Shown piece after piece: positions 20,665-63,202 of a stretch of DNA of 64,000 nt; the stretch's first letter is position 1, and each line of letters begins with the position of its first letter. The stretch comes from Actinomycetota bacterium. Lineage in GTDB: Bacteria > Actinomycetota > Actinomycetes > S36-B12 > UBA5976. The stretch is taken from NCBI GenBank assembly GCA_041192345.1, contig JBEEND010000001.1:87068-151067 (forward strand), in the 5' to 3' direction. Made by a program: the position numbers and the translations under genes. The notes below the pieces were generated by a model. It did no database searches, was not told where the DNA came from, and worked only from the letters and a program-made list of their open reading frames with translations.

Positions 20665-21708
20665 TTATGGCTTGATTATGGTGATACCCGGCAATGGGCT
20701 GGAGCCCAGGCCAGCAAGCGCATCGGGCACTTGTTCCAAAGTAATTGTGCGTTCCACCAAAGTGTCAGGACGTAATGTGCCATCGGCAATTTCACGGAGC
20801 ATCTGTGGATAGTGCGCAGCTGACATTCCATGACTTCCCATAACTGTTAATTCACGGCTAATCACAGTGTGCATCGGAATCGTTGCCTGATCTTTGACTT
20901 CGGCGGGTGGCAATAAACCAACTTGCACGTGTCGACCTAGTCGACGTAAAGATTCAATAGCCAATTTGCTAGTGGCAATACTGCCAAGAGCGTCGATAGT
21001 TAAATCTGCGCCAGCTGGATTGAGTTTCTTAAGTTCTTTGACAACATCATCGTGAATGGAATCTAAGACATAATCAGCGCCAGCTAAGCGGGCCCGATCT
21101 CGCGCAGGATTAGAAGTATCTATTCCAACAACTGTGGCGCCGCGTGACTTTGCAATCATTACGGCAGCAAGACCCACGCCACCACAGCCAAAGACTGCGA
21201 CGAGCTCACCAGCATGAACTTTTCCGACGTGCACAACGGCGCGATACGAAGTGGCAAAGCGACAACCTAACGCTGCTGCCGTTTCAAACGTCATGGAATC
21301 TGGAAGCGCTACGACATTAAAATCCGCATGCGGGATGCGAACGTACTCAGCAAAAGATCCTGGTCCGTCAAATCCTGGTTGCCATTGAAATAAGCAAACT
21401 TGTGCATTACCCGCTTTGCAATCGATGCAATCACCACAGCCGCAAACAAATGGCACAGTCACACGATCGCCAATTTTCCAATTCTTAACATCTGAGCCAA
21501 TTTCGGAAATGATGCCAGCGAATTCATGGCCAGGAACATGCGGAAGTTCAGTGATATCAGAATCGTGACCTTGCCAGCCATGCCAATCACTTCGACATAG
21601 CCCAGTTGCCAGAACCTGAATGACTACCCCGTGCGGGCGAGCTACTGGGACATCACGATCGGCTAGATGTAAGCATTGTCCAAAGGCATCAAATTGGGCT
21701 ACGCGCAT
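20665..21708 (-). CDS. zinc-binding alcohol dehydrogenase family protein
   Basis: GHEFAGIISEIG, Cys cluster CGCGDCIDCKAGNAQVC, and GCGGVG Rossmann motif. Confidence 0.85.
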   Translation of the reverse strand: MRVAQFDAFGQCLHLADRDVPVARPHGVVIQVLATGLCRSDWHGWQGHDSDITELPHVPGHEFAGIISEIGSDVKNWKIGDRVTVPFVCGCGDCIDCKAGNAQVCLFQWQPGFDGPGSFAEYVRIPHADFNVVALPDSMTFETAAALGCRFATSYRAVVHVGKVHAGELVAVFGCGGVGLAAVMIAKSRGATVVGIDTSNPARDRARLAGADYVLDSIHDDVVKELKKLNPAGADLTIDALGSIATSKLAIESLRRLGRHVQVGLLPPAEVKDQATIPMHTVISRELTVMGSHGMSAAHYPQMLREIADGTLRPDTLVERTITLEQVPDALAGLGSSPLPGITIIKP

Positions 21709-21788
21709 GGAATAAGGCTAATCCAGGATGAGGTCAGTAAGTTGCTAAGTTGAATCACTTTGGACTTAACGGACAATTCGCCTCTCCA

Positions 21789-21817
21789 TTGACCAAGTAG
21801 TTTGAAAATTGGATACT
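21789..21817 (+). promoter_or_regulatory. candidate sigma-70-type promoter of the tad operon
   Basis: TTGACC (21789-21794), a 17-nt spacer, then GATACT (21812-21817), about 90 nt upstream of flp. Identified by pattern match only. Confidence 0.3.
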
Positions 21818-21904
21818 TAGAGTGCAAGGTTTCCGTGGTCATCAAGTTATCCGTGGTTAAATTGCAACTAGGAGAAATTCTTCCCCAAAGAGAGGTAAAA
21901 GAAA

Positions 21905-22102
21905 ATGACGAAGTTATTTGCAAAATTCCAATCCTTCGCGAGTCAAGATCGTGGAGCAACTGCTGTCGAATATGGCTTACTCGTAGGTTTGATCGCTGTG
22001 GTAATTATTGTTGCGGTTCAACTATTGGGTGGAACGTTAAATGATACCTTTACAGGCGTTCAGAAATGCTTAGCAACCCCCAATGCAAACAACTGCTCAT
22101 AG
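21905..22102 (+). CDS. flp: Flp family type IVb pilin
   Basis: 65 aa with the Flp motif DRG/ATAVEYGLLVGLIAVVIIVAV (G-A cleavage site, E at +5, Y at +6). Two C-terminal Cys. GAGAGG RBS 9 nt upstream. Confidence 0.9.
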   Translation: MTKLFAKFQSFASQDRGATAVEYGLLVGLIAVVIIVAVQLLGGTLNDTFTGVQKCLATPNANNCS

Positions 22103-22139
22103 TACTGTCTTTTAATAAACATGCTTGACTTCATAGATC

Positions 22140-22613
22140 ATGAGGTTAAGCATGTTTAAAAAGGGTTTAAAAAGAGCAACGCTTTTGGACAACAGGGGAG
22201 CGGCGGCAGTTGAATTCGCAATAATTTTTCCATTGCTGATCCTCTTAATAGTTTTGCTGATTGATTTTGGCCGGCTTTTCTTTGTCCAAATTAGTCTAAA
22301 CGCGGCAAGCAGGGAAGCAGCTCGTTGGAGTTCGCTGTCAGTGGCTCCTTTAGACGTAGCCAATCGCACAAATGCTTCTTCACCTGGAGTTGCGGTTATG
22401 TCCTCGCTGAGTGCCTCCCAATTAGTAGTGACTTCAGTTACAACCTGTACCCCAACGCTTACCAACGAATCAACTGAGGTGACAGTAGCGATTAATTTTA
22501 AATGGATCACCCCAGGAGGACTCGTGAAGATTTTCTCACCTAATTCCACACTTGCAAACAGCGGCGGCATGCAGCTGCAAAGTAAAGGACAGATGTTATG
22601 CTCCGCTTTCTAA
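22140..22613 (+). CDS. tadE: TadE-like pseudopilin
   Basis: N-terminus NRGAAAVEFAIIFPLLILLIVLLIDFGRLFF matches the TadE family, with a prepilin-peptidase-type G/A site. The start could be MFKKG at 22152. Confidence 0.8.
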   Translation: MRLSMFKKGLKRATLLDNRGAAAVEFAIIFPLLILLIVLLIDFGRLFFVQISLNAASREAARWSSLSVAPLDVANRTNASSPGVAVMSSLSASQLVVTSVTTCTPTLTNESTEVTVAINFKWITPGGLVKIFSPNSTLANSGGMQLQSKGQMLCSAF

Positions 22614-23815
22614 AACGCCGCCAATTCGCAAGATCGATATCTGATGAAGCGGGCGCCACTACTGCTATTTTCGCTATTGTTGTCCTGGTTGGGGTTATGG
22701 CAGGCACATTTGCCTTAGTTGTTGATGCTGGTCAATTGTTTCTTGAGCGCAGGGTTGTGCAAAATGTTGCCGATGCATCTGCTGGGTACTTAACTCAGAG
22801 TTGCGCCACGGGGGGAATTTGCGCACCAACGATTCCAAGTTCCTATACCGAAAATAATTCACCTGATTCGAATACTGAAATTATTGAAATTTGTGGAACC
22901 CCCGAAGGCTTTGATCCGTGCACAGATTTAGTCGGTGACATTAGAGATTGCCTCACACCAACAACTGCTTTGGCTGATTCGAATTTCGTCAGGGTACGTT
23001 CGCAAACGCTAACGATTTCTAATAAATCCGCACTGTCACCAACATTTGCTCGATTATTTGGAGCAAGTTCGGATGATGGAAATTGGACTATACGTGGATG
23101 CTCGCAAGGGATTTGGGGTGGACCTTCATCAATGAAGGTAACTACGCCACTTGCCATATCTATTTGCAATTGGGAACCACCGACGAGCTCTTCCGTAGGC
23201 ACACCCAAAGTGGTTCTACCATGGTCTCTGAGTGCGAGTGGCCCGTGCTCAATAGTGGATTTGAATGGGAAACTTTTCAGCAAAGCTGGAACTCATAAAG
23301 GTGTGGCACCAGTTAGCATTCCAGGTATGGATCTCAATTGCATAGAGGGAACCACTTTAAGCGTCGGAGAAAAAATTATATATGCAAATGGTGCCAGCGC
23401 GCCAAAACTATTGTGTGACGGTATTGGCCGAAAGCTTAAATCGCTTATCACCGCGGCAGAGCCAATCTACATACCTATTTACGGTGCTTCTGAAAATGTG
23501 AATGGTAATTTAGAACTCACAGTGATTTCATTTGTGCGATTCAAGTTAACTGCGTATACCGTTAACCCACCACTCTCAACTGGATGCAAAAGCAGCAACA
23601 ACTGTGACGTAAATTGGGATTCTGAGAATCCTATTTTTGACCCTGCAGATCCTCTTTATGGTGGCACGACCTGGGTTGACGCGGACGCGGCATGTAATGG
23701 TAAGGATTTATGCGTGGCGGGTGAGTTCCTAGAGGGTACACCACCTTCAGGTAATATTTCGGGAGGCTCAGACGCTCCATCACTTGGCCCTCTTGCCTTT
23801 AATTTGATTCCTTAG
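22598..23815 (+). CDS. TadG/TadE-G-like pilus assembly protein with large Cys-rich C-terminal domain
   Basis: N-terminus EAGATTAIFAIVVLVGVMAGTFALVVDAGQLFLERRVVQNVADASA matches the Flp-pilus TadE/G-like N-terminal domain. The following roughly 330 aa contain 14 Cys. Confidence 0.65.
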   Translation: MLRFLKRRQFARSISDEAGATTAIFAIVVLVGVMAGTFALVVDAGQLFLERRVVQNVADASAGYLTQSCATGGICAPTIPSSYTENNSPDSNTEIIEICGTPEGFDPCTDLVGDIRDCLTPTTALADSNFVRVRSQTLTISNKSALSPTFARLFGASSDDGNWTIRGCSQGIWGGPSSMKVTTPLAISICNWEPPTSSSVGTPKVVLPWSLSASGPCSIVDLNGKLFSKAGTHKGVAPVSIPGMDLNCIEGTTLSVGEKIIYANGASAPKLLCDGIGRKLKSLITAAEPIYIPIYGASENVNGNLELTVISFVRFKLTAYTVNPPLSTGCKSSNNCDVNWDSENPIFDPADPLYGGTTWVDADAACNGKDLCVAGEFLEGTPPSGNISGGSDAPSLGPLAFNLIP

Positions 23816-23825
23816 GAGGGTACAA

Positions 23826-24419
23826 ATGAAAACTACAACCAGATACTTAATCATTGCCGCAATAATTGCCAGCGTAGTTGCGGTTTTGGTATTTCGCACA
23901 AATTCAAATTTAGATGAAGTTCCGATAACAGCCCCAACGGGTGTTAGCTTACAATCCGGAACTCCGGAGCCATCACCTACAGAAATTTTGGAAGGACCGC
24001 TGTCAGTACCCTCAGGAAAAATTGCAATTTCGGTTGAGCTATCTGATCCAGCTAAAGTTGGGAGTTTCCTGCGGCCAGGTTTGTTCATTACAGTTTTTAA
24101 CACCGTGGCCGCCATTGAAACTGCTGGCGATATCCCAGCTGAAACTGCTGGCGATATTCCAGTTCGAGAAACGCGGGTGCTTCTCACGAAAGTTCAAGTA
24201 TTAGGTATAGCTGGTTACACGGCTGTGGAAGAAGTAGATGCCACAATAACCGAAACCACAATGTTCTTGGTGACATTAGCAGTTACTCAGAATGAAGCGG
24301 AGCGGCTGGTACACGCCATTCAAACTGGAACCCTCTACTTCGGATTATTAAGCGCTGACACTCAAGTCATTCCAGGCGCTGGTGTAAATGACGAAACCAT
24401 ATTCTTAGGAGTAAATTAA
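23826..24419 (+). CDS. cpaB: CpaB/RcpC family Flp pilus assembly protein
   Basis: N-terminal TM anchor (YLIIAAIIASVVAVLVF) and a C-terminal RcpC-like pattern (VLLTKVQVLGIAG...FLVTLAVTQNEAERLVHAIQTGTLYFGL). Confidence 0.7.
   Translation: MKTTTRYLIIAAIIASVVAVLVFRTNSNLDEVPITAPTGVSLQSGTPEPSPTEILEGPLSVPSGKIAISVELSDPAKVGSFLRPGLFITVFNTVAAIETAGDIPAETAGDIPVRETRVLLTKVQVLGIAGYTAVEEVDATITETTMFLVTLAVTQNEAERLVHAIQTGTLYFGLLSADTQVIPGAGVNDETIFLGVN
24117..24164 (+). repeat. 24-bp tandem duplication inside cpaB (ETAGDIPA/ETAGDIPV)
   Basis: GAAACTGCTGGCGATATCCCAGCT is followed directly by GAAACTGCTGGCGATATTCCAGTT. Two mismatches, in frame. Confidence 0.9.
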
Positions 24420-25582
24420 TGGCTCTTGTTTTTGCCAACAGCCCCGAGATCAACGAGAGATTTAGATTCACATTAGGTAAAGATACGCTTTTTGTTGAAT
24501 CAGTTGTACAACTGGATGAATTTCTATCGGCTAATCCTGATGAAGCGTTAGTAATTGTTGGTCCAGATATCGATTTGAACATAGCCATGAATTTGGCTGA
24601 GAAGTTTCGAATATCTCGACCAAGTCTTGGAATTTTACTTACGCGACGACGCGTTGACCTTTCAACTCTCAATCTTGCCATTCGATCCGGGATTCGAGAA
24701 GTTATAAACGCAGATGATTCAGCTGAAATCTTAAGTGCCGTAAAGCGATCACAAGCACTTTCGAGTAAGTTTTCTGCTTTCGTGGATTCAAGTCCAATTC
24801 AGAAATTAGGCAAGACCATTCTGGTTTTTTCTGCGAAAGGTGGCTGTGGTAAAACAACAGTTTCAACTAATCTTTCAGAAGCATTATCTGTAACCTCTGG
24901 CGGCACCGTATGTTTAGTTGATCTTGATTTACAGTTTGGCGATGTAGGAATTGCATTGCGTATTGATCCAACTAAATCTATTTCAAACGCGGTCGAAATG
25001 AAAGATGATTTAGATAAACAGGCGTTATCTTCATTGGTAATAAATTATAAACCAAATTTCGACGTTTTGCTCGCGCCACCTAATCCTGTTGATGCCGAAT
25101 ATATAACTGGTGAATTATGTCGCATAGTTTTAACAGAGTTGCGTGAAATTTATGACTTTGTAGTTATAGATTCATCGCCCGCATTCACAGATGTAATTTT
25201 AGAAGCATTTGATATTGCTGACCTTCATGTGTTAATGACGACTCTCGAGGTACCGACACTTAAAAATCTTCGCGTTTCAAGTAGCACTTTGGATGAACTT
25301 GGTCTCCCGAAAAGTAAACGAATCTACATCGTGAACCAAAGTGATTTAAACTCAGGCCTCACTGTCGATGATGTAGAACGAGCTATCGGATCGACTGTTG
25401 CAATTCAAATACCTTCGAGCGTTGCCGTTCCAACATCGGTAAATCATGGCACAACGCTCTTTGGTTCTGACCCCAAGCATCCAGTAAGTAGAGCAGTTCA
25501 GTCCTTGGCTGATTTAATACTCGATAGACCTAGCGAAATACCCGTTCGTAGGTTCCGGAATAAGCGGGGGGTCAACAAATGA
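24419..25582 (+). CDS. tadZ: TadZ/CpaE ParA/MinD-like ATPase
   Basis: Deviant Walker A VFSAKGGCGKTTVSTNL preceded by a roughly 130-aa receiver-like N-terminal domain. The start shares 1 nt with the cpaB stop (TAATG). Confidence 0.85.
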   Translation: MALVFANSPEINERFRFTLGKDTLFVESVVQLDEFLSANPDEALVIVGPDIDLNIAMNLAEKFRISRPSLGILLTRRRVDLSTLNLAIRSGIREVINADDSAEILSAVKRSQALSSKFSAFVDSSPIQKLGKTILVFSAKGGCGKTTVSTNLSEALSVTSGGTVCLVDLDLQFGDVGIALRIDPTKSISNAVEMKDDLDKQALSSLVINYKPNFDVLLAPPNPVDAEYITGELCRIVLTELREIYDFVVIDSSPAFTDVILEAFDIADLHVLMTTLEVPTLKNLRVSSSTLDELGLPKSKRIYIVNQSDLNSGLTVDDVERAIGSTVAIQIPSSVAVPTSVNHGTTLFGSDPKHPVSRAVQSLADLILDRPSEIPVRRFRNKRGVNK

Positions 25583-26934
25583 CTTTGGCGGATCGCTTAT
25601 CAAGAAACGATGCAGCTGATGCAAAACAAGTTATTGCGGCGCAAAATTTACGTCAGATTGTGCAGGATATTGCAATTAATGACGAACAAGATATTAAGCT
25701 TCGAGTCCATGAGGAGCTAATAGAAATCTTGGGGCAGCAGCTGTATGGCGACCAGGTCGATATTGAGATTCTAGAAAAGCACGTATTCGATGCGACTACT
25801 AAAGTTTTGGGTGCCATAGATCGACCACTATCTGGTTCGGATCGCGCTCGCATGACACAGGAAATTACAGATGAAATTTTAGGCCTTGGGCCACTTCAAC
25901 CACTGCTACGTGATCCGAACGTTAGTGAAATCATGGTCAACGCGTTCGATAAAATATTTGTCGAGCGTGATGGAAATATTTTTCCATCACAAATGACATT
26001 TGTTAATGAAGAACATTTACGGCGCACCATTGATCGGATCGTAAGCAGTGTTGGTAGGCGCGTCGATGAATCAAGTCCAATGGTTGATGCTCGCCTGGCT
26101 GACGGTAGCCGTGTGAATGCGGTAGTTCCACCAATTGCGCTGGACGGATCTTCGTTGACCATTCGTAAATTCAGTGAAGATGCGTTTACCAGCCGTGACT
26201 TAGTGGCTATGGAAACTATTTCGCAAAATGCTATGGACGTGTTGGCGGCTTGCGTGCAAGGTCGACTAAACATGGTTATTAGTGGCGGTACAGGTTCAGG
26301 AAAAACGACAACCTTAAACGTTTTGTCTTCGTTCATTCCAGATGACGAAAGAATTATTACGGTTGAGGATGCGGCCGAGCTTTCCCTTAGTCAACCGCAT
26401 GTCGTGAGATTGGAAACTAGACCAACAAATAGCGAAGAAAAAGGGTTAGTCACAATTCGTGACCTAGTCAAGAACTCGCTTCGGATGCGGCCGGATCGAA
26501 TTGTTGTGGGCGAAGTTCGTGATGGTGCGGCGCTAGACATGTTGCAAGCAATGAATACTGGTCACGACGGTTCTTTAACCACAGTTCACGCGAATACTAC
26601 GCGCGACGCCCTTTCCAGAATTGAAACGATGGTTTTGATGGCAGGTATGGATCTTCCAGTAAGGGCAATCCGCGAACAGATCAAGAACGCTGTTAACGTT
26701 GTGGTTCAACAGTCAAGAATGCGGGATGGCTCTCGCCGCATTACAAAAATTAGTGAGATCACGGGTTTAGAGGGTGAAACCATCGTGATGCAAGATTTAT
26801 ATTCTTTTGATTATTCTGATTCAAATTCAGGTGGTGTAATAGGAAAGTTGCTTCCTACTGGAATTATGCCTGAATTCCTTGATCGTTTAGCGCAACGAGA
26901 TGTGCATCTATCTGCGGAGTATTTCCGAAGATGA
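25579..26934 (+). CDS. tadA: TadA/CpaF secretion ATPase
   Basis: Walker A GGTGSGKTT, Walker B/Asp box RIVVGEVRD, and His box TGHDGSLTTVHAN. 4-nt overlap with tadZ. Confidence 0.9.
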   Translation: MTLADRLSRNDAADAKQVIAAQNLRQIVQDIAINDEQDIKLRVHEELIEILGQQLYGDQVDIEILEKHVFDATTKVLGAIDRPLSGSDRARMTQEITDEILGLGPLQPLLRDPNVSEIMVNAFDKIFVERDGNIFPSQMTFVNEEHLRRTIDRIVSSVGRRVDESSPMVDARLADGSRVNAVVPPIALDGSSLTIRKFSEDAFTSRDLVAMETISQNAMDVLAACVQGRLNMVISGGTGSGKTTTLNVLSSFIPDDERIITVEDAAELSLSQPHVVRLETRPTNSEEKGLVTIRDLVKNSLRMRPDRIVVGEVRDGAALDMLQAMNTGHDGSLTTVHANTTRDALSRIETMVLMAGMDLPVRAIREQIKNAVNVVVQQSRMRDGSRRITKISEITGLEGETIVMQDLYSFDYSDSNSGGVIGKLLPTGIMPEFLDRLAQRDVHLSAEYFRR

Positions 26935-28616
26935 AGCTGTGGCTTCGGGCCTTACTAACTTCGCTTGCGCTGTTTGCGAATCCAATAGGTATCACCACTG
27001 CGAATGCAGCTTTGCCAGAAACTGTCATATTGGTTCTAGATGCAAGTGGTTCAATGAAGGGCGCCAAAATTACTTCGGCAATTGAGGCAGGAAAAACTTT
27101 CTTGAGTACGGTGCCTTCCGGTATAAAAGTTGGTTTAGTGACTTTTAACTCGAATGAAGTACTGGTTATTCCACCTACTCTGGACTTCTTGGTCTTGAGT
27201 GATGCCTTGAGTGCGGTAAAACCTGATGGTGGCACCGCTCTTTATGATGGAATTATATCTGCTATTAACTCAATTGAGTCTGGAGCAACCGCGAGAATTG
27301 TAGTGATAACGGATGGTGATGACACTGACAGTAAAGCCATACCAACTGAAGTGGTTACTGCCCTAAGTAATAGCCAAGTTTCCCTCGACGTAGTAACAGT
27401 TGGTGATGCTACCGAAGAAATTGGAATCCTTACAGAATTTGTTCAGGCAGGAAACGGCAGTTTGTTGCAGAATGTCGACGCGGCACAACTAGCAGAGGTA
27501 TTTACCAAAGTTTTGGCAACGCCTACACCAGACGCAGCAACTCCTAACCCAGACGCAGCAACGCCTACACCAGACACAGCAACTCCAGAAGTGAGTGCTC
27601 CTTTAATTGTTGCGCTCACAAATTCTGAGGTAATTAAATTACTCAAGGTAGCGGCTCTCATTCTGATATTAGGGCTGCTTTTAATTGGCATTCGAATATT
27701 GAATCACAGGAGGCAAGTTCTTAAACTTGTTAAAATGCTCGATAAATATACTATGTCTTTCGTACCAACTGCAGAAGCCGTTAAAGCAAAAAAACGTACT
27801 GAATATGTACCTTCAGATCGAAACATTAAACGACCGAAACTCTTAACTTTGGGCCCTAAAAAGTCAACTCTTTTCCCGGGCATTGCCGACAAACTGGATC
27901 GTGCTGGAATTGCAATGAGTTCCGAGCTATGGATAACGTACTGGATCATCGGTGGCCTGTCTATTGCTTTTGGCTTAACAATCATTTTCAGCCCATCAGC
28001 AATTAGTGTGACCTTTTCCTTAATTGCAGTATTTTTTATCCAGAAATCTTTTTTGAAATCTCGCAACGGTGCGCGAAAGCGAGAATTTGAAGAGCGGCTG
28101 GCAGATTTCTTAACAATCATTGCAAGTGGCTTGCGAGCTGGCCTAACCTTTGCTCAAGCAATCGAATCTGCGGTTGGAGATGGATACGGCGAAGTTGAAA
28201 AACAAGTCCGTAGAGCTTTAGCCGAAGTGCAAGTTGGCTCGACGTTAGATGCAGCACTTATGAGAGTGGCCAAAAAGATGGAGAGCGACGACTTAAAATG
28301 GACAATCGCTGCCATTCGAATTCAACGTGAAGTCGGTGGGAACCTGTCTAAGATCCTCGACACTGCATCAGTCACTATCAGAAATCGCGCTGAATTGAAG
28401 CGGGAAATTCGCACTTTGTCAGCGGAGGGCAGATTGTCAGCCTATGTGTTGCTGGCACTGCCTCTGGGAATCTTTGGTTTTTTGAGCCTTAGTCGCCGAG
28501 ATTACGTGGAGATTTTTTGGACAGAAACTGTTGGGATGATAATGCTTGCGGTTTTCGGAATGCTGGTGACGGCTGGTTGGTTCTGGATTCGTTCTGTAGT
28601 GACAGTGAAGGCTTAG
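26931..28616 (+). CDS. tadB: fusion protein: signal/anchor + von Willebrand A domain + Pro/Thr linker + TM + TadB (T2SS-F) platform domain
   Basis: A single uninterrupted 561-aa ORF. MIDAS residues are present: VLVLDASGSM (DxSxS), GGTALYDG (T) and VITDGDD (D). Linker ATPTPDAATPNPDAATPTPDTATPE. TM helix AALILILGLLLIGIRIL. C-terminal half is TadB-like (FLTIIASGLRAGLTFAQAIE...IQREVGGNLSKILD). Confidence 0.8.
   Translation: MKLWLRALLTSLALFANPIGITTANAALPETVILVLDASGSMKGAKITSAIEAGKTFLSTVPSGIKVGLVTFNSNEVLVIPPTLDFLVLSDALSAVKPDGGTALYDGIISAINSIESGATARIVVITDGDDTDSKAIPTEVVTALSNSQVSLDVVTVGDATEEIGILTEFVQAGNGSLLQNVDAAQLAEVFTKVLATPTPDAATPNPDAATPTPDTATPEVSAPLIVALTNSEVIKLLKVAALILILGLLLIGIRILNHRRQVLKLVKMLDKYTMSFVPTAEAVKAKKRTEYVPSDRNIKRPKLLTLGPKKSTLFPGIADKLDRAGIAMSSELWITYWIIGGLSIAFGLTIIFSPSAISVTFSLIAVFFIQKSFLKSRNGARKREFEERLADFLTIIASGLRAGLTFAQAIESAVGDGYGEVEKQVRRALAEVQVGSTLDAALMRVAKKMESDDLKWTIAAIRIQREVGGNLSKILDTASVTIRNRAELKREIRTLSAEGRLSAYVLLALPLGIFGFLSLSRRDYVEIFWTETVGMIMLAVFGMLVTAGWFWIRSVVTVKA
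27516..27590 (+). repeat. 21-bp (heptapeptide ATP[TN]PDA) tandem repeat, about 3.5 copies, in the VWA-TadB linker
   Basis: Units at 27516-27536, 27537-27557 and 27558-27578, plus a partial unit. In frame with few mismatches. Confidence 0.85.
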
Positions 28617-28620
28617 ATAA

Positions 28621-29526
28621 ATGTCTGCGCTGTCACTTTCGCTGCTTGTCTGGGTAGCAACATTTATTTTTTTGGCCGGGGCATTATTGCTGATATTAAA
28701 TCGGACAAGGAAACAATATAAAAAGACCGTTACAAGTTTACTAAATTCGTACGTGCCTACAATCGAAGAAATGTCTGAGGATGTAGCTCAGTTTTATAAG
28801 AAGAATATAATCGATGCAATTGGTGAATTGCTGATTTCACAAAGTTACCAAAAGCGTATACGCATTCGGTTGGTGGCGACGGGCAAGCAAGACATTAATG
28901 CCTATCGCGTGCTTGTTAGGCGGAAAGTAGTAGGCACCATAATTGGATTTTCTTACGGCTTACTGACTCAACTGGATGCTGGTTTGCGAGGAATATTCAT
29001 AATTCTTATTGCAAGCGCTTTAGGGTTCTTTTTGCCCGATGTATTGACATTTAACACTGGATCGAAAAGATCGTTGGAACTTGATCGAACCCTACCGGAT
29101 GCAATCGACATTCTGAATCTATGTGTCGAGTCAGGCTTAACATTTCAGGCTTCGATGGCACAAGTATCACTGATTCTTGAAGGTCCTATTTCCGATGAGT
29201 TCGCACGTGTCTTGCGACAAATGCAGTTAGGCCAATCATTGATTGCTTCACTGCAAGACTTATCTACTCGAAATAATAATAGTGATTTGAAACGTTTTGT
29301 TTCAGTAGTAATTCAAGCCGACAAGCTCGGTGTTCCGATTTCTACGGTACTTCAAGAACAAGCACGAGAAATGCGCAGCAAGCGGCGAGATCGGGCGCGC
29401 GAGCAGGCCCAAAAAGTGCCAGTAAAGATTCTGGGGCCAGTTATGCTGTGCTTTCTTCCCGGAATCTTTATTGTGATTCTTGGCCCAGCTATGGTTTCTA
29501 TTACTCGTGCCTTTTCCGGCATGTAA
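28621..29526 (+). CDS. tadC: TadC (type II secretion system F family) platform protein
   Basis: 301 aa with an N-terminal TM and a T2SS-F domain (LPDAIDILNLCVESGLTFQASMAQV...VIQADKLGVPISTVL). Confidence 0.8.
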   Translation: MSALSLSLLVWVATFIFLAGALLLILNRTRKQYKKTVTSLLNSYVPTIEEMSEDVAQFYKKNIIDAIGELLISQSYQKRIRIRLVATGKQDINAYRVLVRRKVVGTIIGFSYGLLTQLDAGLRGIFIILIASALGFFLPDVLTFNTGSKRSLELDRTLPDAIDILNLCVESGLTFQASMAQVSLILEGPISDEFARVLRQMQLGQSLIASLQDLSTRNNNSDLKRFVSVVIQADKLGVPISTVLQEQAREMRSKRRDRAREQAQKVPVKILGPVMLCFLPGIFIVILGPAMVSITRAFSGM

Positions 29527-29534
29527 AGTTCACT

Positions 29535-30005
29535 ATGGGCATGGATGCGCTTCAGCTAGCGCCACTGCTTGTATTTTTAGTTGTCGGCGGTCGACTGTCA
29601 CTAATTGATTTGCGAACCTACCGACTTCCAAATCGGCTTATTGCAATTTGTACGGCTGGAATACTCGCACTTCAGATCACCTACTGCTTTGCAATTGGAA
29701 CCTTTAGTGCACTCGTACAATCTGGTCAAACTCTTGGAAAAATATTTACAGCTTACGTATTGCTCTACATATTAAGTAGAGGCCAACTAGGTATGGGTGA
29801 TGTTAAATTTGCCATCCCAGTTGGATTGATCATCGGGTGGTTCCAACCAAATGCCTGGCTGATTTCATTACTAGTGACTTTTCTGCTTGCTGGGATAATT
29901 AGTTTAATTGGCCTGCTTTCTCGAAAGCTAGATAGAAAAAGCCACATTCCGCTTGGGCCCCTAATGTATGTTGGATCGTTTTTGACCCTACTTTTGGGCC
30001 GGTAG
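29535..30005 (+). CDS. tadV: A24-family prepilin peptidase (TadV/CpaA)
   Basis: Polytopic membrane protein with the second catalytic Asp context GMGDVKF. I start at ATG 29535 because the track start at 29448 overlaps tadC by 79 nt. Confidence 0.8.
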   Translation: MGMDALQLAPLLVFLVVGGRLSLIDLRTYRLPNRLIAICTAGILALQITYCFAIGTFSALVQSGQTLGKIFTAYVLLYILSRGQLGMGDVKFAIPVGLIIGWFQPNAWLISLLVTFLLAGIISLIGLLSRKLDRKSHIPLGPLMYVGSFLTLLLGR

Positions 30006-30026
30006 CACGCCAGTAATTGCTTAGTT

Positions 30027-30050
30027 ATCCACAGAAGTTCGGTGGATTTT
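30027..30050 (+). terminator. weak hairpin after tadV
   Basis: ATCCAC-N9-GTGGAT followed by TTTT. Short stem, low confidence. Confidence 0.3.
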
Positions 30051-30083
30051 GCAAATAATTCCTTTTTAGTTATGATAAAAGTC

Positions 30084-30104
30084 CTTGAGTCCACCCGACT
30101 CAAG
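30084..30104. promoter_or_regulatory. HAIR (HspR-associated inverted repeat) operator upstream of dnaK
   Basis: CTTGAGT-N7-ACTCAAG is an exact match to the published HAIR consensus. It lies 76 nt upstream of the dnaK ATG, and hspR is encoded at the end of the same operon. Confidence 0.9.
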
Positions 30105-55354: not shown

Positions 55355-55535
55355 CACCCGGAACCGATCCTTGCAGGGCGCCAAGTCTCACCACCTGCCA
55401 AGGGAAATAAATCTCTGGTGAGTGTGGGGGAACCACAGGTAAGTGGTCTGAATCAGACCTTGGGGTTAAGTCAGGAAACTGACCGGCTGCCTTCCCAGAG
55501 CCGCACCCGACAGCTCACCCCACCGGCGCTGGGAG
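55355..55535 (+). promoter_or_regulatory. ydaO/yuaA-class (cyclic-di-AMP) riboswitch in the leader of the NlpC/P60 hydrolase gene
   Basis: Three conserved cores are present: GGGGGAACCAC (55426-55436), TTGGGGTTAAGTC (55460-55472) and CCGCACCCGACAGCTCACC (55501-55519). They closely match the ydaO cores as I recall them from characterised RNAs. CTCACCA/TGGTGAG pairing occurs at 55387-55393 and 55427-55433. The element ends at the GGGAG RBS (55531-55535). Confidence 0.8.
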
Positions 55536-55539
55536 TCAA

Positions 55540-57591
55540 ATGTCTAGTGCTAAGTCGCGCGGGTCAATCCAGCGCGTAATCTCACTGCCAAAGGGTCTTC
55601 TGGACCGCTTTGAAGCGCGCCTTGACTCTAGCCTGGATGCTGGTTTTAACCGTGCAGACGCCCTGCTAGAGCGTCAAATCCACTCTGTTAGGTATTCGCA
55701 ACGCAGCCTGACCAGTGGCCTAGCCAACACAGCCAGCGCCGCGGACCGAGTTTTAGACTCCCGCATTCCCCAATCTGCATCCTCAGCGCAGGCCGCCCAA
55801 AGATTTAGTCGCGGACTTGCCAGCATGGTGCAAGCTACCGACTCGGCCCTTGACAAAAGAATTTCCGATCAGGACTCCACAAAGCTCAAAACCTCAACGC
55901 AGCGCTTCGTTTCCACCGTCAAGAAACTTGAAGTCAGAGTCGATGCCAAGTTAACCAGCAATCTGCAGGCAGTTGACCGCGCAGTTTCCGTTTGCACTAA
56001 CGCTGCTGGTGGGTCATTGGCAGCCAGTGCGCGACTAGTGAAGCGGTTGGAAAACCAGACCCAGCGCAGTTTCCATCGCGCTGATCAGCGAATCACTAAT
56101 GCCTCAAATCGCATTACTCATATCCGGACTAAAACTGCAGGGCTGATTTACCGCAACACGGCCCGGCTAGATCAAGGAATCGAAACCAGTTTTAATCGAG
56201 TCGATACTGGCCTTAGCCAAGCAATCAAGCACGGTGTGCTTGCGACTAATTCCGCCGTCACTGCTATGCAGGCCACATCCCAATCTCTTGATGTTGCCAT
56301 TGCTAATTCAGTTTCCAGTTTTGACGCCAAGGTAACTCGTAGCGTTAACCAAGTTCAGGTCGCCACCGCAACAACACGAAACTTAGTTAATGCAAAAACC
56401 CTGGCTTTTGAACGTGTTATGGAACTTGGCATCTCGCGCATTGATTCAGGCATAGATCACGGAATCACATCTAGTCGCACTGCTAATCAATCCCTCGTCG
56501 CGCGAGCAAGCAGCGCTGACCTGCATTTGACGTCCCGCCTAGCTCGTATAGATCGCAGACTAAGTGGCGCTATCGCCAAGGTCGCCCTGACTTCTTCGCA
56601 AATCTCCGGTTATGCCACGCGCAATCTCACCAGCGCCGATACTCGTTTAACAACAGGTCTAAAAACTACCGATGCCGGCATCGATACCGCAGTAACAGCA
56701 ATCGTTTCGGTAGCATCCGCAACAGCGAACTTTGCCACACGAAGTGCGCAATTAACTGATGCCACCTTGTTGCGCGGTGTGACAAAGGTTGATCAGTGCG
56801 TTGAAGTTTTTGCGCGCCAAAGCAACAAGAAATCAAGTCATGTTGGCACACGCGTAGCGCCAGCACCCGCGTGGGTTGCGGCGGGCTTAGCCCTAGTCTT
56901 GGGAACTTTAGGAACGGTAACCAGCACATCGGTAATCACGGCTGAATCCGCTCCGATTGAAATTGACAACTCCGCACAGAGCGAAACCATGGCTGCAAAG
57001 ACGGTTGTTTCGCAGTACATGACGGTGCGCGAATCCTTTGCTGCTTTGCAAGCATCCCGCTCTCGCACCATTTCGACTTTAGAAACCGAAATTGCCCAAG
57101 CCCAGGTCAGAGCGCAAGAAACCACGATTGATGGAAATGCCGTTATTAACATTGCGAGCAAGTATGCCGGTGCTTCCTATGCTCGCGGTGGCACAACACC
57201 AAAGGGATTCGACTGCTCAGGTTTTACCACATACGTCTTCAGGCAAGTTGGTGTGTCACTTCCTCGCACATCTGGCGAACAAGCCGCTTGGGCAGATCGA
57301 GTTGCTGACTCAGATCGTCAAGTTGGCGACTTAATGTTCTGGTCAGATCGTGGCGGTGTGCATCACGTAGCTATCTATGCTGGCGATGGCCTGATGTGGG
57401 ATTCCCCGCGTCCAGGTCGCAGAGTTGGCAAGATCAGTATTTGGGGCGATCCGTTTTACGGTCGTGTCCCAGCCGCTGCAGTTAACAGCGATGCCATCGC
57501 AGAGGTTGCCGACAAGACAGCTGAACTAGAAGAAGTAATAGCCGATGTGCCACGACTTGAAATTACGGTTGACCCAACACCCGTTGACTAA
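55540..57591 (+). CDS. bitopic NlpC/P60 peptidoglycan hydrolase with long repetitive N-terminal domain
   Basis: The C-terminal NlpC/P60 domain has the catalytic Cys context GFDCSGFTTYVF and His context GGVHHVAIYAG. A single TM (WVAAGLALVLGTLGTVTSTSVI) lies at about aa 445-466, preceded by basic residues. The N-terminal roughly 440 aa have no signal peptide and carry degenerate [FL]xR[AVI]DxxL/I repeats. Confidence 0.8.
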   Translation: MSSAKSRGSIQRVISLPKGLLDRFEARLDSSLDAGFNRADALLERQIHSVRYSQRSLTSGLANTASAADRVLDSRIPQSASSAQAAQRFSRGLASMVQATDSALDKRISDQDSTKLKTSTQRFVSTVKKLEVRVDAKLTSNLQAVDRAVSVCTNAAGGSLAASARLVKRLENQTQRSFHRADQRITNASNRITHIRTKTAGLIYRNTARLDQGIETSFNRVDTGLSQAIKHGVLATNSAVTAMQATSQSLDVAIANSVSSFDAKVTRSVNQVQVATATTRNLVNAKTLAFERVMELGISRIDSGIDHGITSSRTANQSLVARASSADLHLTSRLARIDRRLSGAIAKVALTSSQISGYATRNLTSADTRLTTGLKTTDAGIDTAVTAIVSVASATANFATRSAQLTDATLLRGVTKVDQCVEVFARQSNKKSSHVGTRVAPAPAWVAAGLALVLGTLGTVTSTSVITAESAPIEIDNSAQSETMAAKTVVSQYMTVRESFAALQASRSRTISTLETEIAQAQVRAQETTIDGNAVINIASKYAGASYARGGTTPKGFDCSGFTTYVFRQVGVSLPRTSGEQAAWADRVADSDRQVGDLMFWSDRGGVHHVAIYAGDGLMWDSPRPGRRVGKISIWGDPFYGRVPAAAVNSDAIAEVADKTAELEEVIADVPRLEITVDPTPVD

Positions 57592-57689: not shown

Positions 57690-58667
57690 CTATGTTTGGG
57701 ATTCCAGTTTCAAGTCATGCTCGACCATCATGGTCACCAACTCTTCAAAAGAAGTCTCTGGTACCCAACCTAGGTTCGCCTTTGCTTTTGCGGGATCACC
57801 AACAAGTGATGAGATATCAGCAGGTCGAAGCAGGTCATCAGAACTACTTACGTGATCCTCCCAATTTGAAATTCCAGCAACTGAAAACGCCAAACGCACT
57901 AAATCTCGTACCGAGTGAGTTTTACCCGTTGCAATCACATAATCATCTGCCACTTCTTGCTGCAACATCAACCACATAGCTTTTACGTAATCACCGGCAA
58001 ACCCCCAATCGCGCATGGCGTCCAGGTTTCCCATCACGATTGTTTTTTGTTTCCCAGTTGCAATGCGCGCTACTGATTGCGAAACTTTTCGAGTCACAAA
58101 CTCAGGGGTACGCCGAGGAGATTCATGGTTAAACAAAATTCCTGAACTCGCATGAAAACCATATGACTCTCGGTAATTAATCGTCATGTGGTGCCCAAAG
58201 ACTTTTGCTACACCATATGGGCTGCGCGGCCATAACAAAGTGGTTTCGCGCTGTGGGGTCTCTTGCGCCTTGCCGAACATCTCAGAGCTCGACGCTTGAT
58301 AAAAGCGAGGACGCCCTTGCGCATCTGGGTGACTAATTCGAATCGCCTCAAGTAAGTTCAATACCCCAATCGCAGTAACCTGGGCGGTTTGCTGAGCTTG
58401 TTCCCAGGAAAATGCCACATGGGATTTTGCGCCTAAGTTATAAACCTCATCAGGGGCAGCAATTTCTAGCGCTCGAAACAAGGTAGTGGTATCTGTTAGA
58501 TCCCCATTGATCAATTGAAGGCCAGGTACTTCAGTGGTTAGTTGAAGTTCGCGCTGTGGATCTACGGAATGGACAAGCCCAAATACTTTGTAGCCTTTTG
58601 CCAGCAACAACTCAGATAGATACAAACCATCTTGGCCGCTAACACCAGCAATAAGGGCAGAACGCAT
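57690..58667 (-). CDS. gmd: GDP-mannose 4,6-dehydratase
   Basis: N-terminus ALIAGVSGQDGLYLSELLLAKGY plus SSSEMFG and YGVAK catalytic motifs. Confidence 0.9.
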   Translation of the reverse strand: MRSALIAGVSGQDGLYLSELLLAKGYKVFGLVHSVDPQRELQLTTEVPGLQLINGDLTDTTTLFRALEIAAPDEVYNLGAKSHVAFSWEQAQQTAQVTAIGVLNLLEAIRISHPDAQGRPRFYQASSSEMFGKAQETPQRETTLLWPRSPYGVAKVFGHHMTINYRESYGFHASSGILFNHESPRRTPEFVTRKVSQSVARIATGKQKTIVMGNLDAMRDWGFAGDYVKAMWLMLQQEVADDYVIATGKTHSVRDLVRLAFSVAGISNWEDHVSSSDDLLRPADISSLVGDPAKAKANLGWVPETSFEELVTMMVEHDLKLESQT

Positions 58668-58702
58668 AAGTACTAAAGTATCGGACTTCTAGCTCGATCT
58701 TG

Positions 58703-59677
58703 TTACTTATGACTTACTTGCCAAGCATTCCATGCGCTTTGGACCATATCACGAAGTTGAAAACGACTTTGCCAACCAAGATTTTCTTTAGCCTTAGAAA
58801 CATTCGCAACCAACGCAGCTGGGTCGCCTGCGCGCCTTTCCACAATCTCAGGAACAAGTTTGATCCCAGTCACATCTTGGATCGTAGATAAAACTTCAAA
58901 GACACTAGCTCCAACCCCGGTGCCGATGTTTATTGCCTCAAATCCTGGTTGCATGGATTCAACTAAATCCATCGCAGCAACGTGAGATTCCGCTAAGTCC
59001 TGCACATGCACATAGTCACGAATACACGAACCGTCAGGAGTGCTGTAGTCATTTCCAAAAACTTTTGGGGCTATTCCAGAATCTATTGCTTCAAAAACTA
59101 TCGGCACCAAGTTAAATGCAAACTGGTCACCAAGTTCAGGCTGGCCAGCACCTGCCACATTGAAGTAGCGCAGCGCAGCAACTTTGAAACCATCAGAAAC
59201 TGACAGTGCCTTAGAAATAATTTCGCCTTCAAGCTTGGTCAAACCGTAAGGGTTAATTGGTGAACAGTTTTCGAATTCTGAAATAGTTTGGCCAGGCTCT
59301 ATTTTTGGCGTGCCATAAACCGCAGCAGAAGAACTAAAAACAAGATTCAGTACGCCGTGCTGCTTCATTGAATCAACAAGATTTTGAAACCCACCAACAT
59401 TTTCTTGCCAGTAATAATCTGGGCGCTCAACTGATTCCCCGACCTTTTTCTTGGCGGCTAAATGAATAACACCTTTAAAATCATGCTTTGCAAAAACCGA
59501 TTCAACTGCGCCGGCGTCGGTTAACGTGATTCTCTCGACCTCGATGCCCGAAGGAAGTCGAGCCGCAATCCCAGATGACAAGTCATCGAGCACAACTAGC
59601 TCACGTCCTGATTTCAAAGTTTCCGCAACCACGTGCGCACCGATGTATCCGGCGCCGCCAGTAATGAGCCAAGTCAT
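58703..59677 (-). CDS. galE: UDP-glucose 4-epimerase-like NAD-dependent epimerase
   Basis: ITGGAGYIGAHV Rossmann motif, SSSAAVYG and YGLTK (YxxxK). Confidence 0.8.
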   Translation of the reverse strand: MTWLITGGAGYIGAHVVAETLKSGRELVVLDDLSSGIAARLPSGIEVERITLTDAGAVESVFAKHDFKGVIHLAAKKKVGESVERPDYYWQENVGGFQNLVDSMKQHGVLNLVFSSSAAVYGTPKIEPGQTISEFENCSPINPYGLTKLEGEIISKALSVSDGFKVAALRYFNVAGAGQPELGDQFAFNLVPIVFEAIDSGIAPKVFGNDYSTPDGSCIRDYVHVQDLAESHVAAMDLVESMQPGFEAINIGTGVGASVFEVLSTIQDVTGIKLVPEIVERRAGDPAALVANVSKAKENLGWQSRFQLRDMVQSAWNAWQVSHK

Positions 59678-59750
59678 AACTTAAGTCTCGCAGAAATTAT
59701 CTCGAATCCCTCATGCATTTAAGGGATGACGAAGGGCAATCGACCAATAG

Positions 59751-60770
59751 CTATTTCTTTACGGAGCGAAATAGCCTTCTCAAGAATTTATCTCCTGTAC
59801 GCAAGAATCTTGTGGTCGCCCACGATTTAGATTTGAGCACTCGTTCCAGCCCTAAAAGGACATTGTCACGTTCGGCAACGGCGCTGTCACGTTCGGCAAC
59901 GGCGCTGTCACGTTCGGCAACGGCGCTGTCACGTTCGGCAACGGCGCTGTCACGTTCGGCAACGGCGCTGTCTTCAAAGAAAATAACCGGGCGTTCGACA
60001 AAATCCCAACGATTCGCGCTTCGGCAGTGATCTATGTAAACAGTAAAAAGTCGTTCGGAAATAAACCCGCTCCAACGGTATTGAAACCCCTTGGTAGGTA
60101 GCGAATCTGAAATGTCATCGAGAGCCTTTAATACTGGAAAAAGAAGCGCCACCCACTCGTTGTAGAAATCTGGGCTTCCGATCCACATGTTCCAGGGGTA
60201 AAGAAATTGGGTATTTTTCAAGTCCGATTTTGAATCAATAATTCCAAATGTCCCTTCAACACACTTATCAAATGCTAAACAAGCCACATCAAGTGCTCGC
60301 TCAAGTGGAGCATGGCAAACAATAAAATGTTCGTACACGCTAGATTTGAGATCCATTGGCTTGGGTACGACTATTTTATCTACGTAGCTGCACAAGAATT
60401 TAGCTTCCTTACCTGCACATGAGTACCGATTTTTTAAATCTTGTGTGTAATTTTGATCTTTAGGCTCATTCGGATTTAGGGAAAAAATTCTTCGGTAGTG
60501 AGTAATGCCAACTTGTTTCTTGTTTTCGAAAAATTGCCTTGCCCCAAGCAGGATAATGTTTTCCGAAAGTGATTCAGGATGGGCCACTAATCCTGAATCA
60601 CTTTCGACATAATGCTGGTAACCGTGGACTAATCCACTACTTAGGACTGCACAAATTTCGAGATAAGGAGGTTCGAGTTCTCTATAAATCGGTTCTAAAT
60701 GTGAGGCAACAAGAACTAAGGTGTCAACTTCATGCAGGTCTTCCATTTCACCGTCGTTCTCTAATTGCAT
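59751..60770 (-). CDS. DUF4422-like putative glycosyltransferase-associated protein with (DSAVAER)x5 repeat
   Basis: The ITHYRRIF motif and overall pattern resemble DUF4422, recalled from memory. The C-terminal region carries five identical heptapeptides, followed by a basic tail containing SKSWATTRFLR. The alternative start at ATG 60746 removes the 23-nt overlap with the upstream gene. Confidence 0.45.
   Translation of the reverse strand: MQLENDGEMEDLHEVDTLVLVASHLEPIYRELEPPYLEICAVLSSGLVHGYQHYVESDSGLVAHPESLSENIILLGARQFFENKKQVGITHYRRIFSLNPNEPKDQNYTQDLKNRYSCAGKEAKFLCSYVDKIVVPKPMDLKSSVYEHFIVCHAPLERALDVACLAFDKCVEGTFGIIDSKSDLKNTQFLYPWNMWIGSPDFYNEWVALLFPVLKALDDISDSLPTKGFQYRWSGFISERLFTVYIDHCRSANRWDFVERPVIFFEDSAVAERDSAVAERDSAVAERDSAVAERDSAVAERDNVLLGLERVLKSKSWATTRFLRTGDKFLRRLFRSVKK
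59864..59972. repeat. perfect 21-bp tandem repeat, 5 copies plus 4-nt partial
   Basis: TGTCACGTTCGGCAACGGCGC occurs at 59864, 59885, 59906, 59927 and 59948 with no mismatches. It is in frame on the minus strand and encodes DSAVAER. Confidence 0.97.
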
Positions 60771-63138: not shown

Positions 63139-63202
63139 CGCAAACTCCCATCTAAACTCACATGCGCACTTCCATTGTATTTCTGAGGTAGATCTTTAGT
63201 TT

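Follow-up and report, generated by a model that had tools for sequence, protein, structure and literature searches.

A complete Tad/Flp pilus operon as a cassette at the adh–dnaK site of a freshwater actinobacterium

The 64,000-nucleotide stretch of an Actinomycetota bacterium considered here (contig JBEEND010000001.1; hereafter the window) carries a complete Tad/Flp (type IVc) pilus operon, whose nine co-directional open reading frames (ORFs) fill positions 21905–30005. It is a cassette that some lineages carry between two core genes and that most relatives cleanly lack at this place. On its left lies a minus-strand block of genes for a zinc-dependent alcohol dehydrogenase (Zn-ADH), an aminotransferase, a glyoxalase, MGMT, an ADH, and a short-chain dehydrogenase/reductase (SDR). 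On its right is dnaK–grpE–dnaJ–hspR with a perfect HspR-associated inverted repeat (HAIR) operator. The DnaK of the window is 96–100% identical to metagenomic proteins, and the named ones come from Candidatus Nanopelagicales, an Actinomycetota metagenome-assembled genome (MAG), or a freshwater metagenome. Because of these matches, and because tad genes and dnaK also occur together on one 198-kb MAG contig, the host is on this evidence a freshwater acI actinobacterium (Nanopelagicales), a monoderm. Nanopelagicales of the acI group are the most abundant freshwater bacterioplankton and are regarded as strictly free-living and streamlined.

The first three genes, like the rest on the plus strand, encode the pilins. 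The major prepilin gene flp (21905–22102; 65 aa) matches Pfam Flp_Fap (8.7e-16, 57.9 bits against a cutoff of 32.2), and its product has the processing site G/ATAVEY, with GATAVEY at residues 17–23. A C-terminal C-x8-C extension (KCLATPNANNCS; 22060–22102) is found in Flp of the window and of the related locus L172 (L numbers denote the metagenome contigs or loci compared with the window), and the 58–59-aa Flp proteins of L083, L084, and L081 are without it. The extension may form a disulfide loop, which would be unusual among Flp pilins. The minor pilin, or pseudopilin, TadE (22140–22613; 157 aa) matches Pfam TadE (7.4e-17, 61.6 bits) and has the motif G/AAAVEF. The third gene (22598–23815; 405 aa) encodes a TadG-like large minor pilin with a weak match to Pfam Tad that is above the cutoff (2.7e-06, 28 bits against 22.3). 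Its N-terminal pilin-like helix, G/ATTAIF, lacks Glu5 and is followed by a cysteine-rich ectodomain in which no recognizable domain was found. It has only 16 homologues among 5.8 billion proteins, and although the pilin-like helix and many cysteines are conserved, the protein is hypervariable, with 39–53% identity to relatives. A Foldseek search of the PDB gave no match below E 0.38, using a poor AlphaFold model built on 16 sequences (predicted local distance difference test, pLDDT, 62; predicted template modeling score, pTM, 0.51).

The assembly machinery follows. The CpaB/RcpC homologue (23826–24419; 197 aa) has one predicted N-terminal membrane helix and matches Pfam RcpC (1.6e-16); it scores 48.9 bits with TIGR03177, under the cutoff of 71, and no solved structural relative was found by sequence. 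The TadZ/CpaE-like ATPase of the ParA/MinD family (24419–25582; 387 aa) matches ParA/AAA_31 (1.1e-14) and CbiA and has the deviant Walker A motif KGGCGKT. The TadA/CpaF secretion ATPase (25579–26934; 451 aa) matches T2SSE (2.4e-64, 217.7 bits) and carries the Walker A motif GGTGSGKT. Its score with the NCBIfam model TIGR03819, 326.7 bits, is strong but under the equivalog cutoff of 373. Residues 59–437 match solved Caulobacter CpaF structures (E 2.5e-119), and an exact-sequence look-up of TadA returned no identical entry. The two platform proteins are TadB, which is fused to a VWA domain (26931–28616; 561 aa; VWA_2 8.3e-15 and T2SSF 1.7e-19, 70.4 bits against a cutoff of 25.2), and TadC (28621–29526; 301 aa; T2SSF 3e-18, 66.4 bits against 25.2). 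The last gene, tadV (29535–30005; 156 aa), encodes a prepilin peptidase (Peptidase_A24 1.5e-10, 41.9 bits against 26.5) with Asp25 and the GMGD Asp89 present and the methyltransferase domain absent.

The VWA::TadB protein runs from a signal-peptide-like N terminus through a VWA domain with the metal-ion-dependent adhesion site (MIDAS) DASGS and Pro/Thr/Ala-rich 7-aa repeats to a membrane helix and the T2SSF platform. Across the VWA::TadB family the signal-peptide-like N terminus and the MIDAS are conserved, as is the membrane helix that follows the ectodomain, from which we infer that the VWA domain faces outward. Among solved structures, the closest to this domain in sequence are BatB-type VWA proteins and the VWA domain of the fimbrial subunit Mfa5. 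The Pro/Thr/Ala-rich linker that joins the VWA domain to the first membrane helix is encoded by three tandem 21-nt repeats (27516–27586; heptads of the ATPTPDA type), and it is the most variable part of TadB between relatives, with 65–75% nucleotide identity in L169.

All tad ORFs are full length against their orthologues. The tadV start was set at ATG 29535 from the 154–160-aa orthologues in L081, L084, and L169–L172; the mechanical ORF from GTG 29448 would overlap tadC by 79 nt. With this start, the junctions in gene order are a gap of 37 nt, an overlap of 16, a gap of 10, overlaps of 1, 4, and 4, and gaps of 4 and 8. An earlier note, made from the letters of this DNA, had described a nine-gene Flp/Tad operon on one strand, which the Pfam matches and the intact motifs bear out, and tight coupling with overlaps of 1–16 nt and gaps of 38 nt or less, which holds with ATG 29535. 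It was also right about the neighbors, a detoxification-type minus-strand block on the left and the dnaK operon on the right. Its expectation of no secretin agrees with the Pfam results, which show no secretin domain among the nine Tad proteins, and its monoderm host agrees with the DnaK matches to Candidatus Nanopelagicales and Actinomycetota MAG proteins.

The locus thus combines a pilin with the Flp motif, a TadV peptidase, a TadA/CpaF ATPase, both TadB and TadC, and TadZ with pseudopilins, the components by which Tad/Flp systems are recognized. Judging from these families, TadV would process Flp, TadE, and the TadG-like protein by cutting just after their conserved glycine, and a TadA hexamer on the TadB/TadC platform, positioned by TadZ, would drive polymerization of Flp. 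TadE and TadG would prime or tip the fiber. CpaB and the extracellular, MIDAS-bearing VWA domain of TadB would act on the outer face of the membrane, and a secretin would be unnecessary in a monoderm.

Signals for expression sit at the head of the operon. A promoter-like TTGACC-17 nt-GATACT lies 88 nt upstream of flp (21789–21817, plus strand), as a consensus match only, and TTGACT-containing upstream regions also occur in L084 and L081. A strong RNA hairpin follows flp (22116–22158, plus strand); it is an inverted repeat of −27.2 kcal/mol (z −6.3), as stable as which was none of 200 shuffles, and the tadE start codon sits within its 3′ arm. The hairpin is specific to the pilin allele, being found in L172 and not in the L083 or L084 alleles. 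It probably lowers expression downstream of flp, which would set a high ratio of pilin to machinery. Rfam gave no match in or beside the tad locus.

The inserted cassette is about 8.3 kb long (21726–30023, with boundaries good to about 3 nt) and consists of the flp promoter region, the nine tad genes, and an 18-nt tail. Its counterpart, the empty site, emerged from a synteny scan in which the adh protein (gene at 20665–21708) served as the anchor on metagenome contigs and loci were classified by tblastn. On 25 contigs an adh orthologue that is 69–96% identical sits directly beside dnaK; together with L091, found by blastn, this makes at least 26 empty sites. L088 and L173–176 are also empty, with 10 kb of conserved synteny on each side. 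In empty loci the adh orthologue is about 180 nt from dnaK, and alignments to the window stop at 21725/21726 and restart at 30022–30024. With the slash marking the junction, the empty spacer reads ...GGGTATTCCAAGGCTG/GTTATCCACAGAAG... (short form ...TATTCCAAGGCTG/GTTATCCACAG...). The window reads ...GGCTAATCCAGGATG/AGGTCAGTAAG... at the left end and ...CAGTAATTGCTTA/GTTATCCACAGAAG... (short form ...CAGTAATTGCTTA/GTTATCCACAG...) at the right. Close empty spacers hold no tad remnant. The same empty junction is recognizable down to 74–81% identity in adh and 88–97% in DnaK (L108, L113, L119), and in the most distant contigs (L111/L112, L115, L117; adh 69–76%) the adjacency is kept and the spacer is more diverged.

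The occupied state likewise recurs. Besides the window it is found in L172, which spans adh, tad, and dnaK in full, and in L171, L169/L170, L083, and L084–87. On the 198-kb MAG contig (P0247, P0128), the TadG-like protein and DnaK are RI895_104 and RI895_111, a spacing that fits nine tad genes followed by dnaK. An assembly artifact is rejected on the recurrence of the occupied state in independent assemblies (L083, L169–172, and the MAG contig). Island status follows from the exact empty sites in many relatives and not from composition; presence of the locus at this position in all relatives, which the earlier note had named as speaking against an island, is clearly not what is found.

The ends of the insert were compared for repeats. 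An imperfect direct repeat has its left copy, CAGTAAGTTGCTAAGTT, just within the left end (21735–21751, plus strand) and its right copy, CAGTAATTGCTTAGTT, across the right junction (30011–30026, plus strand). The copies match at 16 of 17 positions with one gap (p about 0.004–0.008 against shuffles and random pairs), and the repeat is not conserved in L083. It is not treated as an att site, and the insert ends show no longer inverted or direct repeats.

Several further features cluster at the right junction. A perfect DnaA-box consensus, TTATCCACA, lies exactly on it (30025–30033) within a small hairpin, ATCCAC-N9-GTGGAT. This 9-mer, of which the 64 kb contain two copies only, is retained in the closer empty-site relatives and reads ATATCCACA in more distant ones. 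Within 30048–30104, a dnaK promoter-like TTTGCA-17-TATGAT is followed by the perfect HspR operator, HAIR CTTGAGT-N7-ACTCAAG, at 30084–30104; the insertion leaves the two sites intact, and relatives conserve them. An 11-mer from the right insert end, CAGTAATTGCT, has nine copies with at most one mismatch across the window against 1.6 expected, a number that no shuffle reached, and the other copies are all inside genes.

The adh–dnaK spacer has other contents elsewhere. In the L084–87 lineage tad abuts dnaK at the same right junction as in the window. Upstream of tad lies a giant protein of 2806 aa (seen at L084 1–1583) with An_peroxidase (animal heme peroxidase), RTX, fn3, and Invasin_D3 domains. 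L107 (1–9800), from a 542-kb contig that also bears an L084-lineage DnaK, has adh; at the same left junction there begins a series made up of a subtilase, a beta-helix/OmpA protein, and the first part of the peroxidase/RTX giant. In this lineage the subtilase, beta-helix/OmpA, and 2806-aa genes are co-directional with tad. Read together, L084 and L107 indicate that the island is about 22 kb of surface or secreted proteins plus tad at the adh–dnaK site. L094 and L103 have unrelated ORFs without a Pfam hit beside adh. In L081/L082 (TadA 88%, TadB 67%) the operon is somewhere else, with two flp genes, between an SDR gene and a FAD_binding_4/ALO gene, in a neighborhood syntenic with window positions 1–13 kb. 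Because of these varied contents and the L081/L082 placement, the spacer is by gene content a hotspot, and the tad operon appears at more than one home in the order. Two marks of flexible islands are therefore seen: presence or absence between close relatives with conserved flanks, and differing gene content at one site (tad alone in the window, L172, and L083; surface genes plus tad in L084 and L107; unrelated ORFs in L094 and L103). A third, a flanking tRNA, is missing, as ARAGORN found no tRNA in the 64-kb window.

Divergence within the cassette points to its source. Every one of the nearest homologues of TadB (67–98%) and TadG is metagenomic, and the name, in the few cases where one is given, is freshwater metagenome, Actinomycetes, or Actinomycetota MAG; named genera reach about 30–41% in TadB and up to 64% in TadA among the matches listed. 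Identity of the tad genes to the window is close to that of the flanks in L083 (86% vs 87%), L084 (74–77% vs 78%), and L081 (72% vs 70–78%). The source is therefore placed in the lineage's own gene pool and not in a distant donor, because the nearest alleles are acI or freshwater actinobacterial and tad divergence is about that of the flanks. Identity is also mosaic. L169 goes from 65–89% in tad to 92–97% over the initial 2 kb of the dnaK operon and 89–99% beyond, with the step at about 30000. In L083 the motor genes are 91–95% identical to the window and the adh flank 78–94%, but flp–tadE–tadG only 52–78%. These values indicate that the pilin module (flp, tadE, tadG) evolves much faster than the motor. 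The simplest reading would be that acI bacteria exchange the cassette within their own gene pool through homologous recombination and that the exposed pilins are under diversifying selection. L083 has in addition lost tadV down to its last ~45 nt (L083 12576–12700), with the cassette otherwise intact, which suggests decay of the cassette or a peptidase encoded elsewhere.

Mobile carriers leave no trace here. The nine tad genes fill the insert, which has no integrase or transposase. Plasmids offer no close relatives (TadA at most 56%), nor do viral contigs, where the sole match is a 29% VWA. An integrase-mediated island, an integrative and conjugative element (ICE), or a prophage is rejected for want of an integrase, att repeats, a tRNA, and viral or plasmid kin; carriage by a plasmid or phage is rejected on the same TadA and VWA matches. 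The whole of the evidence makes it probable that the intact type IVc operon was gained in at least two lineages, from their own gene pool, at an adh–dnaK adjacency that is ancestral. In each of these lineages the cassette would have arrived either by insertion or through homologous recombination at the conserved flanks, without integrase, tRNA, plasmid, or phage.

What the pilus would be used for is less settled than how the operon came to its site. Our tentative leaning, held at a little under even confidence, is toward a thin adhesive pilus that gives some lineages an option to attach to surfaces or particles, because the operon is accessory, adjoins giant adhesin-like and surface proteins in one lineage, and has a MIDAS ectodomain on its platform protein. 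With the same cassette, a role in DNA uptake is a real but somewhat doubtful possibility, the pilus then serving competence together with ComEA/ComEC, as in Micrococcus luteus. Flp pili are required for transformation of M. luteus, and tad and comEA/EC genes widely co-occur in Actinobacteria (PMC4322843). In Rhodoluna lacicola, a freshwater actinobacterium, tad and com genes are co-induced in the dark (PMC8591293), and a depiction of the general Planktophila traits includes competence proteins (PMC12817590). The mosaic pattern of identities implies that this population recombines frequently, but most related lineages are without the operon and yet look equally mosaic. The gene set also differs from that of M. 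luteus in its tadZ, cpaB, VWA::tadB, and linked tadV, and the 64-kb window has no com genes, comEA and comEC included. If true, DNA uptake would supply nucleotides or recombination substrates and could promote the cassette's own spread. Pili are common phage receptors. A phage-receptor role would fit the hypervariable pilins and the constant-diversity reading of Planktophila islands (PMC12817590).

Gain of the cassette in at least two lineages has to be weighed against repeated loss. In a neighbor-joining (NJ) tree of dnaK–grpE–dnaJ, the window, L171, L172, and L169 form one tight branch (95–97% identity) nested among the empty L089, L173–176, L099, L093, and L114. L084 stands alone as sister to seven empty loci, and none of the four outgroups carries the cassette, though the spacer of three (L111, L115, L117) has diverged further. 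On this tree, two gains, or one gain plus a transfer, are more parsimonious than one gain and at least four losses with identical, scar-free junctions. That the operon is ancestral at adh–dnaK and has been repeatedly deleted, with the window preserving the old state, is unlikely. The similar divergence of tad and flanks in L083, L084, and L081 would fit long residence in Nanopelagicales, and L083 shows decay under way. Against it, the empty sites with adh at 74% identity or more share one common junction without a tad remnant, the outgroups are empty and the losses would have to be precise and identical, and L169 pairs near-identical flanks with far more divergent tad genes.

Gain from the lineage's own gene pool also has points standing against it. 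The direction of change rests on parsimony and the sameness of the junctions. The nearest empty relatives are about 7% diverged in dnaK–grpE–dnaJ, and the four loci that come within 95% of the window all carry the cassette; what is demonstrated is a polymorphism among close lineages, not inside a single species. Metagenome contigs break at variable regions, so that the ratio of occupied to empty loci is not a population frequency. Assembly of a pilus is something we infer with confidence from the gene families, and the pilus itself is known here from genes alone. The preference for adhesion over DNA uptake is weakly based.

A broader reading would join these threads. Under it, adh–dnaK would be a swap site at which co-occurring acI bacteria exchange surface-structure cassettes (tad alone, tad with giant adhesin-like proteins, or unknown ORFs) by homologous recombination on the conserved dnaK. 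The tad pilus would capture DNA and so make the cassette a self-promoting competence island, and the VWA/MIDAS part of TadB would replace the secretin complex of diderms. As a whole this combination seems improbable.

Composition adds little to the case for gain. The insert has 44.2% GC against 47.6% for the rest of the window, a gap of 3.4 points, and no other 8.3-kb stretch of the window has a GC content as low or deviates as far in tetranucleotides. The difference lies at the first codon position (GC1; 0.521 per tad gene vs 0.587 in other genes, p=2e-4). It is absent at the second (GC2; p=0.35) and weak at the third (GC3; 0.378 vs 0.406, p=0.08). Against contiguous control runs, the codon-usage distance of the tad genes falls in the 5% tail. 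The GC dip, though real, is small and would largely reflect the amino-acid make-up of membrane and secreted proteins; being mostly in GC1, it is therefore no proof of foreign origin by itself. The earlier note had called the locus AT-richer than its flanks, which stands, but overestimated the contrast about four-fold (3.4 points, not 10–20). Its three quoted 60-nt lines inside the locus do have 35, 40, and 48% GC, but the flanks are not near 58%: dnaK has 49.5%, lpd 49.4%, and the XPB partner gene 50.6%, and only 6.6% of the 60-nt lines outside the locus reach 58%. The island that it suspected is upheld by synteny and not by its GC evidence, and the horizontal acquisition at which it hinted has to be qualified, the source being placed in the lineage's own gene pool. 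The GC and codon-usage profile that it recommended does bring out the small dip and the codon-usage tail, but the near-uniform GC3 would wrongly have argued against an island. A classical foreign island from a distant AT-richer donor is very unlikely, as the low GC, the tetranucleotide deviation, and the codon usage that favor it meet a gap of only 3.4 points that sits in GC1 with GC3 not significant, nearest TadB and TadG homologues that are all of freshwater or acI type with named genera distant, and no integrase, transposase, tRNA, or plasmid or phage relative.

Two features elsewhere in the window concern the cell surface. A lower-GC stretch at 57690–64000 (42–43% over the last 4 kb) holds a cell-surface glycan cluster with genes for a GDP-mannose 4,6-dehydratase, an epimerase, a DUF4422 protein, a 796-aa GT4 glycosyltransferase, and a GSCFA protein, and the large replacement island described in Planktophila may begin here. 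A cyclic di-AMP (c-di-AMP) riboswitch (55386–55542; 55 bits) lies directly upstream of a gene for a 683-aa NlpC/P60 cell-wall hydrolase (55540–57591).

Systems of this kind are known, and a small additive island with pilus genes has already been published for Planktophila (PMC12817590). What is added here is the precise site, the adh–dnaK spacer without a tRNA, with its junctions at base level, evidence for the ancestral empty state, the alternative contents of the site, and the modular divergence of pilins and motor. The presence or absence of a complete pilus machine between neighbors is a concrete, testable trait difference that could concern attachment, DNA capture, or phage susceptibility. 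With the junction sequences, metagenomic reads can be used to count both alleles directly. These results leave the current understanding of Tad systems and flexible islands as it was.

The fused platform protein links the operon to other Actinomycetota. A TadA-anchored scan of GTDB genomes, in which the best TadA among the matches listed was 64% identical, was used to survey the VWA::TadB architecture and not synteny. Kribbella, Krasilnikovia, Planosporangium, and further Actinomycetota also have the order flp–tadE–tadG–cpaB–tadZ–tadA–VWA::tadB–tadC. Of the 76 TadA-anchored loci with TadB detected among the matches listed, 19 carry the fusion, and these are all Actinomycetota by record title; both VWA and T2SSF are found in all of the best 120 of 871 TadB matches. 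A full-text search of the library searched found no relevant paper on VWA::TadB in Actinobacteria. The fusion is widespread in Actinomycetota and is a reasonable structural target for how Tad pili cross the monoderm envelope.

Compared with the Aggregatibacter tad and Caulobacter cpa systems, the operon shares the Flp motif G/XXXXEY, TadE-type pseudopilins, CpaB/RcpC, TadZ/CpaE, and TadA/CpaF, as well as an in-locus TadV without a methyltransferase, a platform split into TadB and TadC, and a single operon. It differs in having no secretin (RcpA/CpaC), TadD, or other outer-membrane parts, in the N-terminal extracellular VWA domain of TadB, and in the large minor pilin with a cysteine-rich ectodomain. 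The actinobacterial VWA::TadB operons (Kribbella, Nocardioides, Krasilnikovia, Planosporangium, Pedococcus, Phycicoccus, and others) have the same order and the same fused platform protein. However, their VWA::TadB, at about 650 aa, has one more N-terminal module ahead of the VWA domain, no neighboring tadV was detected among the matches listed, and identity is at most 64% in TadA and about 30–41% in TadB.

The tad-1 and tad-2 loci of M. luteus likewise encode an Flp pilus of a monoderm actinobacterium, with G/XXXXE[YF] substrates and a peptidase of the TadV type, but there the genes form two loci with no tadZ and an unlinked tadV, whereas here there is one operon with tadZ, cpaB, VWA::tadB, and a linked tadV (PMC4322843). 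In Actinobacteria tadV is usually unlinked (Angelov et al., PMC4322843). Because tadV is the last gene of the operon, the cassette is self-sufficient, and this would fit the more frequent transfer of single-locus type IV filament (TFF) systems (PMC6668835). A likeness in setting is offered by Planktophila GI2, a small flexible island of the additive type in a genus of Nanopelagicales, which contains genes for CpaF, TadB, TadC, and TadG and is read as surface-structure variation under the constant-diversity model (PMC12817590). With the sites compared by description, GI2 is flanked by tRNA and also carries AraH and IclR, whereas the cassette described here carries tad genes only, with no tRNA within 64 kb.

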